The notes below the pieces were generated by a model. That model saw only the letters and a list, made by a program, of their open reading frames with translations. It was not told where the DNA came from and did no database searches. DNA of 14,579 nt from a virus (Duplodnaviria > Heunggongvirae > Uroviricota > Caudoviricetes): the IMG/VR virus record IMGVR_UViG_2529293240_000014; one strand, given 5' to 3'. This document shows positions 1 through 14,579 of this stretch, piece after piece. Made by a program: the position numbers and the translations under genes. Positions within the stretch are counted from its first letter, which is position 1. Each line of letters starts with the position of its first letter.

Positions 1-480
1 GTGGCGGACCTGACGTATGTTGCCACACAGGAGGGATGGTTGTACCTCGCTGGCATCAAAGATGTTTATACGTGCGAAATTGTCGGCTACGCCATGGGAG
101 AGCGCATGACAAAAGAGCTGACAGGTAAAGCCCTGTTTATGGCGCTCAGGAGCCAGCGCCCACCTGCCGGGCTAATCCACCACTCTGATCGAGGTTCACA
201 GTACTGCGCATACGATTACCGGGTCATACAGGAGCAGTTTGGTCTGAAAACATCAATGTCGCGTAAAGGTAACTGTTACGACAACGCTTCGATGGAAAGC
301 TTCTGGGGAACGCTGAAAAATGAGAGCCTGAGCCACTATCGTTTTAATAACCGGGATGAAGCCATCTCAGTAATACGGGAATACATTGAGATTTTCTACA
401 ATCGTCAGCGTCGTCACTCTCGTCTGGGGAATATCTCCCCGGCAGCCTTCAGGGAAAAATATCATCAGATGGCTGCTTAA
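1..480 (+). CDS. IS3-family transposase OrfB, C-terminal fragment (5' end outside window)
   Basis: Translation carries integrase-core motifs typical of IS3-group OrfB (HHSDRGSQY, SMSRKGNCYDNA, YNRQRRHSRLG). Stop at 478-480. Confidence 0.85.
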   Translation: MADLTYVATQEGWLYLAGIKDVYTCEIVGYAMGERMTKELTGKALFMALRSQRPPAGLIHHSDRGSQYCAYDYRVIQEQFGLKTSMSRKGNCYDNASMESFWGTLKNESLSHYRFNNRDEAISVIREYIEIFYNRQRRHSRLGNISPAAFREKYHQMAA

Positions 481-522
481 AAAAAGAACAAATGGTAGTG
501 TCCGCTATTGCCTGTACACCTC
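1..522 (+). mobile_element. IS3-family insertion sequence, 3' portion only (IS600-like); the window begins inside the element
   Basis: ORF 1..480 encodes the C-terminal DDE transposase core (HHSDRGSQY...MSRKGNCYDNA...). The adjacent minus-strand endolysin frame diverges from endolysin-like sequence at about 520-523, which places the IS end there. Exact end not resolved. Confidence 0.65.
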
Positions 523-600
523 AGTGATTAACACAGATGCTATAGCAACAGCCCCGCCACCAATAGCAACTGCAACAGCCTTGCGTAATGATGGCGACAT
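523..600 (-). pseudogene. SAR endolysin (phage 21 R-like lysozyme), N-terminal ~26 codons only, truncated by the IS insertion
   Basis: Minus-strand ATG at 600-598 overlaps the holin stop (TAATG). Translation [26 protein letters not shown] is a signal-anchor-release N-terminus; the frame then reads into IS-derived sequence and stops. Confidence 0.6.
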
Positions 601-815
601 TATTCACCTCTCGCAGCCTTACGCTTGTCTTCTCTTATTTTGAAATACAGATTCGTCAGATAAGTCAGAAGCCCCAGAAGCAGACTTCCCAGCACACCAA
701 TCGCAGCCCACTGTGACGGACTGACCTGATCAAGCCACTGTAAAAGCCAGTAGCCGGCACTGCCGGCGGAGGTGCCGTAGGCAATGCCCGTTGACATTTT
801 GTCCATAGATTTCAT
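600..815 (-). CDS. Class II holin / pinholin (phage 21 S-like, EssD-like), 71 aa
   Basis: Start ATG at 815 preceded by GGAGGTGAGG. Translation [71 protein letters not shown] with dual-start motif (M1/M4) and two TM segments. The ORF-track extension to 902 has no RBS and spans a terminator hairpin. Confidence 0.85.
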
Positions 816-875
816 AACCTCACCTCCGCAAATAACGGATGGCGTAGCTTTACACTGAGAGACGAAAAGGATTTG

Positions 876-898
876 AAAAAAAGCCCGCAAAAGCGGGC
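876..898 (-). terminator. Intrinsic terminator just upstream of the holin gene
   Basis: Plus-strand aaaaaaa-GCCCGC-aaaa-GCGGGC; on the minus strand this is a GC-rich 6-bp hairpin followed by a 7-U tract. Confidence 0.5.
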
Positions 899-1106
899 GC
901 AACGGAATCTACAGTAAGGAAAGCACTCTATCCAACAAAACACCCACAGTTAATCGGAATAAAAGCAGAGTGCTTATGAATGATCGCCTGCCCGAAGGTT
1001 GGTATTTCTGCACAGCAATTTTGCAAAAAAGACGAGCATTCAAAACGCAAACGTCTTTCAGTCACTCCGTGCTTTCCCATCATCGCAGACTGAAAGACTT
1101 TAACTT

Positions 1107-1178
1107 GAGCGGCAGCGGGAATCGAACCCGCATCATCAGCCTGTAAGGCTGAGGTAATAGCCATTATACGATGCCCGC
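1107..1178 (-). tRNA. tRNA-like sequence, probably degenerate (loop CTTACAG, nominal anticodon UAC)
   Basis: Good T-arm (GCGGG-TTCGATT-CCCGC) and anticodon arm (TCAGC-CTTACAG-GCTGA). The 3' acceptor strand TGCCGCT cannot pair with 5' GCGGGCA without a 1-nt indel. Confidence 0.35.
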
Positions 1179-1181
1179 ATA

Positions 1182-1257
1182 TGGTGCCGACTACCGGAAT
1201 CGAACTGGTGACCTGATGATTACAAGTCAGTTGCTCTGCCTGCTGAGCTAAGTCGGC
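1182..1257 (-). tRNA. tRNA-like gene with non-canonical anticodon arm (loop contains U-GUA-A / UGU); identity unresolved
   Basis: Acceptor stem GCCGACT/AGTCGGC, discriminator A, encoded CCA, D-arm GCTC...GAGC, T-loop TTCGATT. Anticodon region AACTGACTTGTAATCATCAGG forms only a 4-bp stem with a 10-nt loop, and the T-stem has one mismatch. Confidence 0.45.
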
Positions 1258-1259
1258 GC

Positions 1260-12354: not shown

Positions 12355-12378
12355 TAACCGCGCTCAGGCGGTTTTTTT
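12355..12378 (+). terminator. Terminator-like hairpin plus T-tract inside the Rha upstream extension (possible attenuator)
   Basis: AACCGC-gctcag-GCGGTT followed by TTTTT. Lies between the strong upstream RBS/ATG (12251) and the Rha-domain start (12545). Confidence 0.3.
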
Positions 12379-12544
12379 ATGCGTCAAGCACAGCCACATT
12401 CAGATTATGGTGGGGCGTGCAGGGCAGCCGCAAGGCTGGCCGGTTTCGGTAGTCACCGGTTGTAGCAACCCTGTGCGTCTCACCACCCATGAGATTGCTA
12501 CCTCTGGTGGTGAGTTATTTAAACTGACTATCGAGGCTGCCATC

Positions 12545-13099
12545 ATGGCTACTATCCTTACCCTTTCTCACCCTGACGTAACCATCGAAAATGGTCGCGC
12601 TGTCACTACGTCTGTTGCGGTTGCGGAGTTCTTCCGGAAAATGCACAAAAACGTTATTCAGAAGATCGAAACTCTCGAATGCTCGCCGGAGTTTAACCGG
12701 CTTAATTTTAAGCCCGTCACCTATACCGACGCCAAAGGCGAAAAACGCCCAATGTACCAAATCACCAAAAACGGCTTCGTTTTCCTGGTGATGGGCTTCA
12801 CTGGCAAAAAAGCCGCCGCATTCAAGGAAGCCTACATTGCTGAGTTCGACCGCATGGAGGCCGAACTGCGCCAGAATAACACCCCACCTGCTGACAAGAT
12901 GATTCCGGGTGATGGTCGCACTCTGGTTGTTCACTTCGACAAATTCGGCAATGTCGAATTCACCGAAACCGTTCCTGATGGCGCACTGGTCTGTACCCTG
13001 GAGACTTTCCGGTTTTATCTGGAAAAACAGGGATGGACTCTTGTTAACCGGGGCGCAATTAAAAATATGACTGTGGAACAATTACTTTCTTTAAAATAA
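12545..13099 (+). CDS. Rha-family phage regulatory protein; start ambiguous (12545, or 12251 with a 98-aa N-terminal extension)
   Basis: Rha-domain motifs AVTTSVAVAEFFRKMHKNVIQKIETL...KRPMYQITKNGFVFLVMGFTGKKAAAFKEAYIAEFDRME. ATG at 12545 preceded by GAGG; the in-frame ATG at 12251 has a stronger AAGGAAAGAG site. Confidence 0.7.
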   Translation: MATILTLSHPDVTIENGRAVTTSVAVAEFFRKMHKNVIQKIETLECSPEFNRLNFKPVTYTDAKGEKRPMYQITKNGFVFLVMGFTGKKAAAFKEAYIAEFDRMEAELRQNNTPPADKMIPGDGRTLVVHFDKFGNVEFTETVPDGALVCTLETFRFYLEKQGWTLVNRGAIKNMTVEQLLSLK

Positions 13100-13115
13100 A
13101 AATGGAGCTACGGAT

Positions 13116-13397
13116 ATGAACCCTATGCTTGATTATTGTTTTACCTCTGCACCTCAGCAGACCATAACACACACCGGAATCAAAAATTTGTTATGGATAA
13201 TCAAAAAAACCCTCCAGCAGAAAGGTGATCCCGATTTAATTCCCTGTGCTTATGGCCTGTGTGACAGACAAGTAAGCCCTGATAAGGCTTACACTGCTGA
13301 ACTTATTTACATGCACGGAACCATGATGAGGAAAAAGAAACGCAAATATTGTAGTGAAATCTGCGCCGAAAAAGACCAGATGGCACACGAACTTTAA
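13116..13397 (+). CDS. Hypothetical protein, 93 aa, Cys-rich, unknown function
   Basis: ATG at 13116 preceded by GGAG. Translation contains CAYGLCDRQ and YCSEICAEK pairs, possibly metal-binding. No family recognised. Confidence 0.5.
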   Translation: MNPMLDYCFTSAPQQTITHTGIKNLLWIIKKTLQQKGDPDLIPCAYGLCDRQVSPDKAYTAELIYMHGTMMRKKKRKYCSEICAEKDQMAHEL

Positions 13398-13503
13398 TTA
13401 ACTGACTATTCGAAACTGAATTTATGCCAGCAATGGCAGGGATTCGCTCAACCTTAATTAAGGAGAAAAACATGAACACCAATTATGAGGTAATGACTCC
13501 AAC

Positions 13504-14007
13504 TTACTGATAGTGTTTTATGTTCAGATAATGCCCGATGACCTTGTCATGCAGCTCCACCGATTTTGAGAACGACAGTGACTTCCGTCCCAGCCTTGCC
13601 AGATGTTGTCTCAGATTCAGATTATGTCGCTCAATGCGCTGAGTGTAACGCTTGCTGATAACGTGCAGCTTTCCCTTCAGGCGTGATTCATACAGCGGCC
13701 AGCCATCCGTCATCCATACCACGACCTCAAAGGCCGACAGCAGGCTCAGAAGACGCTCCAGTGTGGCCAGAGTGCGTTCACCGAAGACGTGCGCCACAAC
13801 CGTCCTCCGTATCCTGTCATACGCGTAAAACAGCCAGCGCTGACGTGATTTAGCACCGACGTAGCCCCAATGTTCGTCCATTTCAGCGCAGACAATCACA
13901 TCACTGCCCGGTTGTATGCGCGAGGTTACCGACTGCGGCCTGAGTTTTTTAAGTGACGTAAAACCGTGTTGAGGCCAACGCCCATAATGCGTGCACTGGC
14001 GCGACAT
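13504..14007 (-). CDS. insB: IS1 InsB reading frame (normally expressed as the InsAB' frameshift fusion)
   Basis: ORF translation ...[54 protein letters not shown]... is IS1 InsB. Confidence 0.9.
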
Positions 14008-14201
14008 CCGACGCCATTCATGGCCATATCAATGATTTTCTGGTGCGTACCGGGCTGAGAGGCGGTGTAAGTGAACTGTAGTTGCCATGTTTTACGGCAA
14101 TGAGAGCAGAGATAGCGCTGATGTCCGGCAGTGCTTTTGCCGTTACGCACCACGCCTTCAGTAGCGGAGCAGGAAGGACATCTGATGGAAATGGAAGCCA
14201 C
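13926..14201 (-). CDS. insA: IS1 InsA, 91 aa (GTG start)
   Basis: Translation (V/M)[42 protein letters not shown]... with GTG start 56 nt from the IS end. Confidence 0.92.
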
Positions 14202-14256
14202 GCAAGCACCTTAAAATCACCATCATACACTAAATCAGTAAGTTGGCAGCATTACC

Positions 14257-14579
14257 GTCTTGCCGAAGAAGATCCAGCTTCTGCAACCAGGCCATTCAGA
14301 ACTGAAGTGAAGCGCAGTCGACTGTTAATTGACGAGTATCTGTTAATCAGGAAAATAGCAGACGTCCAGAACGAATGGTTCGGCCTTTGCATGGATCTTG
14401 CACTGGTAACAGGACAGCGCGAAGGAGATCTGGCGGCTATGAGATGGGAGGATATAAGAGATGGCAGGCTATACGTGGAACAACAAAAAACAGGGGCAAA
14501 AATTCGCATTTCTCTCCCCACCACGATTTCCAGATTGAATTTAACACTTGCCGATGTACTGGATAACTTGAAAAAATAA
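14257..14579 (+). pseudogene. Lambda-Int-like tyrosine integrase, internal fragment truncated 5' by IS1
   Basis: Translation ...ATRPFRTEVKRSRLLIDEYLLIRKIADVQNEWFGLCMDLALVTGQREGDLAAMRWEDIRDGRLYVEQQKTGAKIRISLPT... aligns with the central part of lambda Int. In-frame TAA at 14577-14579, upstream of where the catalytic residues would be. Confidence 0.8.

Follow-up and report, generated by a model that had tools for sequence, protein, structure and literature searches.

The stretch of DNA considered here, referred to below as the window, is the whole of the 14,579 nucleotides (nt) of the IMG/VR virus record IMGVR_UViG_2529293240_000014. Between a remnant of the endolysin gene rrrD on its left and a remnant of the integrase gene int on its right, it carries the regulatory and early genes of a prophage, interrupted by four insertion sequence (IS) elements, namely IS600, IS911, IS2 and IS1. 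The window is 100% identical to positions 352-14930 of contig AFOW01000008.1 in assembly GCA_000217895.2, which is that of Shigella flexneri J1713 (PMC6397287); the Shigella-like host proposed in an earlier note, made from the letters of this DNA, is thereby borne out. Right of the integrase remnant the contig runs into ybhA, modCBA, acrZ, modE, modF and galETK, while its left end lies 351 nt beyond the window start, at position 405 of IS600, and holds nothing further left. What is seen is almost certainly the half of a lambdoid, Rac-like prophage that carries its regulatory and early genes, located beside ybhA-modCBA-gal in S. flexneri J1713 and disabled by the IS expansion of Shigella.

The structure of the locus was read against an uninterrupted relative, the prophage of Escherichia coli FDAARGOS_944 (NZ_CP065613.1), which lies beside ybhA-mod-gal and served as the empty-site reference, and against a sister copy in FDAARGOS_943, which carries IS insertions at other places. 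When complete E. coli genome records were searched with the whole window, none covered at least 80% of it, and two close relatives surfaced. The FDAARGOS_944 prophage has none of the four IS elements and keeps full int, xis, recE, gam, rrrD, Rz, terminase and head genes. Its order is lambda-like and complete (int-xis, early-left genes, cI-cro, replication genes, nin-type genes, Q, transfer RNAs (tRNAs), holin-lysozyme-Rz, terminase-head), and the window, which starts from the int remnant and follows this order as far as the rrrD remnant, belongs with the lambdoid (Rac/DLP12-like) prophages. The two share the attachment region beside ybhA-modCBA and differ in that the reference has no IS, retains the late genes and carries another segment between holin and tRNAs. 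From the tRNA cluster to ydaE, and again over the 3' part of int, they are 99.4-99.7% identical in DNA, in four blocks that break exactly at the IS ends. Alignment to an intact relative, which the earlier note had suggested, thus sets the ends of all four elements, fixes the IS boundaries to the base and maps the deletion described below; the note's picture of four different IS elements, each affecting a prophage gene, is upheld. Apart from the four IS-cut genes, every coding sequence annotated in FDAARGOS_944 from rrrD to ydaE is full-length in the window, without in-frame stops. The encoded proteins are 97.6-100% identical to their counterparts (the holin 93%), and the sole gap in this comparison of intact genes is one of 2 residues, in a gene for a protein of 260 amino acids.

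The leftmost element is the 3' part of IS600, a member of the IS3 family (1-523, plus strand), which is 98.5% identical to an annotated IS600 in FDAARGOS_943 and ends with ...CACCTCA at position 523. That reference copy measures 1264 base pairs (bp), has the ends TGAGG...CCTCA (TG...CA) and is flanked by the 3-bp duplication TTG; the window part, together with the extension of the contig (97.1% identical), aligns to its positions 405-1264, down to the last base. The C-terminus of OrfB is encoded at 1-480 and matches Pfam rve, rve_2 and rve_3 as well as NCBIfam IS3. On alignment, the IS3-family element of the earlier note is IS600, and it truncates the endolysin gene as stated there. Its end adjoins codon 26 of rrrD, of which codons 1-26 remain (524-600, minus strand); a tblastn search with the RrrD protein of FDAARGOS_944 recovers residues 1-26 at 100% identity. 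The visible sequence is compatible with a simple insertion as well as with one accompanied by a deletion. Next to the remnant lies an intact class II holin gene of 71 amino acids (600-815, minus strand; Phage_holin_2_1). An identical holin is widespread and is followed in intact relatives by lysozyme, Rz, terminase, portal and capsid genes; the IS600-rrrD junction was found at none of the 10 places listed for the identical holin in intact E. coli prophages. The earlier note's remark on missing head and tail genes ahead of the lysis genes describes the end of the source contig, which begins inside IS600, and not the genome.

The second element is a complete IS911 of 1249 bp (2614-3862, minus strand), which many annotated IS911 copies match from end to end at 99.8% identity, the matching reference annotation being "IS3-like element IS911 family transposase". 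Its ends, TGAAGTGG...CCACTTCA, are of the TG...CA type, with inverted repeat arms of 28 nt that are 75% complementary. OrfA and OrfB are open and overlap at nt 318-372 of the element, where an A6G slippery site (AAAAAAG, at nt 324) is set for a -1 shift, and the transposase matches NCBIfam IS3 (E 6.7e-90) and contains rve domains. The suspicion that this copy is one base short, prompted by a length of 1250 bp for IS911, was dropped, since its alignment with the best E. coli copies spans the same 1249 bp and is ungapped, and its reading frames are open. The interrupted gene matches Pfam DUF1367 (E 1.7e-96), which we take to be the ybcN family, and is broken at codon 145, where it runs on into IS911 to give a chimeric product that was located on contig AFOW01000008.1. 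Its 3' fragment (codons 145-199) occupies 2448-2613, including the left CGG at 2611-2613, and its 5' fragment (codons 1-145) occupies 3863-4296, including the right CGG at 3863-3865, both on the minus strand. The flanks read CACCCACGG to the left and CGGCTACCG to the right of the element, against the empty site CACCCACGGCTACCG in FDAARGOS_944; CGG is therefore duplicated, because the window flanks repeat what the empty site has once. The split of a ybcN-like gene with a CGG duplication, as first proposed, is accordingly reproduced.

A complete IS2 of 1331 bp (10464-11794, minus strand) is the third element and shows 99.6% identity to a copy of IS2 annotated in FDAARGOS_943. It has IS2-type ends, and its OrfB matches the IS2 TnpB model NF006918 of NCBIfam over residues 1-301 of 301 with 724.7 bits, the cut-off being 597; both reading frames are open, with an A6G slippery site (AAAAAAG) in their overlap set for a -1 shift. 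Flanks of CTGGCTCAG and CTCAGCATT face the empty site CTGGCTCAGCATT in FDAARGOS_944, and it is because they repeat a sequence that is single there that the 5-bp CTCAG can be recognized as duplicated. The target is an open reading frame (ORF) resembling YmfI and DUF2622 proteins, which is intact in FDAARGOS_944 at 12859-13155 as a minus-strand ORF of 98 codons, with the insertion site at about codon 15. In the window, its 3' part from about codon 15 onwards lies at 10210-10463 (including the left CTCAG, 10459-10463) and its 5' part of about 15 codons at 11795-11842 (including the right CTCAG, 11795-11799), both on the minus strand. A Pfam search gave no match, and it was NCBIfam together with a homologue search that placed the ORF: the relatives are 72-88% identical, two of them named DUF2622 domain proteins in Salmonella sources, and the match to the NCBIfam family YmfI_phage has an E-value of 1.6e-14, below the family cut-off. 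The ORF is annotated as a gene in none of the 19 E. coli RefSeq records that hold it. An insertion into intergenic DNA was nevertheless rejected as less likely, since the 98-codon ORF, though unannotated in E. coli RefSeq, has relatives at the protein level. The insertion and its CTCAG duplication are thus exact as the earlier note gave them, while the splitting of a gene is probable, the target ORF being unannotated.

The fourth element, a complete IS1 of 768 bp (13489-14256, minus strand), differs from IS911 and IS2 in lacking a duplication. Annotated IS1 copies match it at 100% identity and an IS1A-type copy at 91%, and it has inverted repeat arms of 23 nt that are 87% complementary; insA and insB' are open, an A6C slippery site (AAAAAAC) for a -1 shift lies in their overlap, and NCBIfam IS1 is matched with an E-value of 1e-42. 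The nine bases on its left (CAATTATGA) and right (GTCTTGCCG) are unrelated, and the 8-10-bp duplication of a simple IS1 insertion was not found. This absence is meaningful because IS1, where it inserted simply in the sister prophage of FDAARGOS_943, has the normal 9-bp duplication (TGAAATCTG); a product of deletion or recombination is expected to lack one, and the identification as IS1 is not weakened. To its left, a small early-left ORF downstream of ydaE keeps only its initial 17 nt, ATGAACACCAATTATGA (13472-13488, plus strand), and to its right the integrase remnant begins with codon 183 (14257-14579, plus strand), with a frameshift near codon 287 that leads to a stop at 14577-14579. In terms of the FDAARGOS_944 prophage, IS1 joins position 14800 to position 19496, and codon 6 of the small ORF to codon 183 of int. 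The 4695 bp that are absent hold recE, gam, genes for an AAA ATPase and a DUF1187 protein, xis and int codons 1-182. Both the junction of a truncated gene start with the middle of an integrase and the loss of the early-left region were therefore rightly described in the earlier note. The integrase frameshift (14560-14579; L005, 10486-10498) is shared with S. flexneri K-272.

Taken together, IS911 and IS2 inserted by simple transposition, each into one ORF and with its usual duplication (3 bp for IS911, 5 bp for IS2). IS1 marks a deletion of 4.7 kilobases (kb) that reaches from the small early gene up to codon 182 of int. Since the two reading frames and the slippery site are kept in each, the complete copies of IS911, IS2 and IS1 look competent for transposition. 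The prophage is presumably no longer able to excise, because int and xis are lost, and presumably no longer able to lyse its host, because the endolysin is lost. By its sequence, it deserves the word cryptic that the earlier note applied to it: the lesions comprise a truncated and frameshifted int, the loss of xis and an endolysin gene broken off at codon 26, and the other genes of the window are intact. It might still be argued that the prophage functions and that the IS copies only decorate dispensable genes, considering that the genes for immunity, replication, Q and holin are undamaged and that DUF1367 and the YmfI-like ORF are probably accessory; yet the missing int codons 1-182 with the frameshift beyond them, the deleted xis and the endolysin cut at codon 26 leave this view scarcely credible, and as to excision and lysis the sequence already refutes it.

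Several points weigh against the reading of an IS-disabled prophage. The draft contig ends in IS600, so that what became of the remainder of rrrD, and of the genes for head and tail, is out of view, and contigs that cross multi-copy IS elements rely on mate-pair placement, so that the join at IS1 could in principle skip DNA. The ORF cut by IS2 is uncalled by RefSeq annotation and its YmfI match stays under the family cut-off, and the integrase frameshift, in draft sequence, could be a homopolymer error, although it is common to K-272. In the extreme case, repeated IS elements would have been collapsed and non-adjacent flanks joined by the assembler, making some of the junctions, above all that of IS1, false; IS1, IS2 and IS911 are indeed multi-copy repeats, and the draft contig ends in IS600. 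Such an artefact is very unlikely, however, as the flanks at each IS follow a single reference prophage without change of order or orientation, the IS911 and IS2 duplications are exact, and the same IS911 junction occurs in an independent read-set contig (L004). Furthermore, both IS1 junctions are present in the assembly of S. flexneri K-272 and the right one in two complete genomes.

These two genomes are those of S. flexneri SFBU1023 and of ECMA0423, which is labelled E. coli, and they hold the right IS1 junction alone. There, the left flank of IS1 (loci L018, 1-3028, and L019, 1-5088) is chromosomal DNA of citC/dpiB. On the map of E. coli K-12, cit lies at about 14 min and ybhA-mod-gal at about 17 min. 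In these strains, the arrangement would imply that a large deletion or inversion linked to IS1 took place between cit and gal. Against a collection of species-representative genomes, the exact left IS1 junction gave 0 matches and the right junction 2; the two assemblies with the right junction are noisy (93.5% and 97.5% identity, many gaps), and the absence of the left junction from them is weak evidence. Neither the IS1 junctions nor a precursor were found among the complete E. coli genomes of the collection searched, in which the best matches are Rac prophages with unrelated IS1 copies nearby. Because four genomes share the right junction and the left flank is variable, the junction between IS1 and int appears to be conserved and the older of the two, and the DNA to the left of IS1 appears to have been remodelled more than once; IS1 would have entered int first, and its left side would have changed later.

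The prophage of K-272 has also been altered in ways of its own. Its DUF1367 gene and rrrD are intact, and another IS911 cuts Rz. A further IS911 in that strain (locus L006, 8084-9332), flanked by ATC and AAC without duplication, joins the equivalent of window position 6152 to that of 13413. The deletion linked to it removes the whole replication and immunity region and is an independent event in the same prophage.

How the IS1 junction came about can be accounted for in two ways, both of which fit the data. A deletion adjacent to IS1, which may well be the answer though it falls a little short of probable, would start from a single IS1 in int, flanked by a 9-bp duplication of GTCTTGCCG, which then transposed within the molecule to a target in the small early ORF at its left; this would remove the 4.7 kb and the left copy of the duplication in one event. 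The single IS1 without duplication between flanks collinear with FDAARGOS_944, the conservation of the right junction in four genomes beside a variable left flank, and the insA, insB' and A6C site retained by this copy are all consistent with such an event. The same product, however, would be left by two equally oriented IS1 copies that had inserted independently of each other, into the small early ORF and into int, if RecA-dependent recombination between them deleted the intervening DNA and left one hybrid IS1. This course of events is a serious candidate, which we hold at slightly less than an even chance. It can draw on the very many IS1 copies of S. flexneri chromosomes (PMC7373316) and on the two IS1 copies carried by the prophage in FDAARGOS_943, and the joining of the IS1-int junction to citC/dpiB in two complete genomes is a signature of exchange, so that the distant left flank in SFBU1023 and ECMA0423 fits recombination at least as well as adjacent deletion. 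Each course lacks its expected forerunner: no intermediate with IS1 in int and the 9-bp duplication was found, nor was a genome with both parental insertions seen. The IS1 of the window is, moreover, 100% identical to single copies elsewhere and bears no hybrid signature, which speaks against recombination. In the classic adjacent deletions by IS1, known from gal and lac, one IS1 is kept, there is no duplication and the loss is contiguous and one-sided, as here; recombination between two copies of IS1 yields the same outcome.

The density of IS elements agrees with what is known of Shigella. IS1, IS2, IS4, IS600 and IS911 are the five elements expanded in all Shigella species; they make up 86% of the IS burden in S. 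flexneri, and the Shigella reference chromosomes carry 229-348 IS copies each (PMC7373316). Four of the five named elements occur in the window, in an S. flexneri host, where IS DNA makes up 26.6% of the sequence, and the statement that this density and mix are typical of Shigella-type genomes is thus in line with the published survey (Hawkey et al. 2020, PMC7373316). From 229-348 copies per chromosome of about 4.3-4.8 megabases, some 0.7-1.2 elements are expected in 14.6 kb, against the 4 observed; the Poisson probability of at least 4 is about 0.006-0.03, a rough estimate for a window picked after the fact. The insertion sites in this prophage differ between strains J1713, K-272 and FDAARGOS_943. 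In the sister prophage of FDAARGOS_943, IS2 has hit the terminase gene, an IS1A lies upstream of Q, an IS1 lies in ydaE, and IS600 has hit the small early ORF and recE. The varied places of the IS elements in the FDAARGOS_943 and K-272 copies fit a view of prophage DNA as a tolerated target.

Most of the remaining sequence consists of intact genes. The Q-like antiterminator gene (DUF1133; 1607-2158) and a YbcO nuclease-like gene (2158-2445), both on the minus strand and both labelled by Pfam, encode proteins 100% identical to those of FDAARGOS_944. The middle of the prophage (4338-10155), whose genes lie on both strands and carry Pfam labels, is likewise intact, with 98.9-100% protein identity to FDAARGOS_944. 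On its minus strand it holds, in the first part, a Rem-like gene, hokD/sok, the QueH gene, a gene for 118 amino acids and a DUF977 gene, followed in the second part by the DnaC-like ydaV, the initiator-like gene for 260 amino acids, ydaT and a Cro-like gene; on its plus strand are a cI-like helix-turn-helix gene, a DUF1391 gene and a small ORF (10030-10155), the latter 97.6% identical to FDAARGOS_944, where its coding sequence is incomplete. Two of these genes are prophage cargo, namely the toxin gene hokD with its sok antisense RNA (Rfam, 117 bits; 4872-5197, minus strand) and the intact queH (5255-5920, minus strand), which codes for an epoxyqueuosine reductase; the HokD and QueH proteins are 100% identical to those of FDAARGOS_944. 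In the replication module, the palindrome GTAACGC-N4-AGCGTTAC occurs in three copies about 200 bp apart (8090-8108, 8297-8315 and 8489-8507), against a chance expectation of 0.01. One copy lies just upstream of the 260-amino-acid gene, which precedes the DnaC-like ydaV, and two lie inside it; the three probably serve this module as origin or operator sites.

Between IS2 and IS1, an ORF for a regulator of the Rha/Ash type (12251-13099, plus strand) matches Pfam Phage_ASH over amino acids 14-108 and Phage_pRha over amino acids 119-203, and is followed by ydaE (13116-13397, plus strand). The 5' third of this "Rha family" ORF contains an isrK-like small RNA with its own terminator (12302-12378; Rfam, 61.5 bits) and a C4-like antisense RNA (12403-12490; 75.7 bits), both above their gathering scores. 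The layout of this isrK/C4-Rha region resembles that of the immI module of P1, in which the c4 RNA lies upstream of the antirepressor gene. The annotated start codon of the ORF, and perhaps the Ash domain itself, may thus be an over-call across RNA genes.

Four prophage tRNAs were located by ARAGORN and Rfam at 1107-1414 on the minus strand, with the anticodons CAT (Met/Ile2-type), TCT (Arg), TGT (Thr) and TAC. The last of them (1107-1178, minus strand) has the body of the reference tRNA-Gly(TCC) with the anticodon TAC and is one base short in the 3' acceptor strand; the same variant also occurs in two E. coli prophages (L009 and L014), and it may be an anticodon-switched or a decaying tRNA. 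Beyond the tRNAs, the window is 96.8% identical to FDAARGOS_944 at 524-806, which covers the holin and the part of rrrD, and unalignable to it at 807-1103, while the stretch 524-1103 up to the tRNAs is 99.4% identical to the E. coli prophage L009. The segment from holin to tRNAs is a mosaic exchange of a lysis module between lambdoid prophages.

Comparison with the cryptic prophages of E. coli K-12 places the locus in familiar company. By annotation names and general knowledge, it shares ydaE, ydaS/T-type immunity, ydaV and recE with Rac, and ybcN, ybcO, the Q-like gene, rrrD and hokD with DLP12. All three are defective lambdoid remnants retained in the chromosome, yet the prophage of the window lies at another chromosomal site and has other lesions, its decay being dominated by recent insertions of still-intact IS elements. 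Relative to the IS expansion described for Shigella (PMC7373316), its gene interruptions with canonical duplications and its one IS-flanked deletion are nothing different in kind.

The pattern in the window is therefore already known biology, a textbook case with no new kind of feature. Its value lies in offering a clean, base-exact example of how the IS expansion of Shigella inactivates a prophage stepwise, and independently in sister strains, and its junction sequences could serve as lineage markers for the typing of S. flexneri. It is further conceivable, if on balance unlikely, that the IS1 in the integrase gene is an old, lineage-wide landmark of S. flexneri and a recurrent breakpoint. 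If so, one IS1 could have both locked in the prophage and driven, in other strains, the deletion or inversion of a large part of the chromosome. One may speculate that this lock-in preserved the cargo of the prophage, including QueH, hok/sok, the tRNAs and the isrK and C4 RNAs, for its host.

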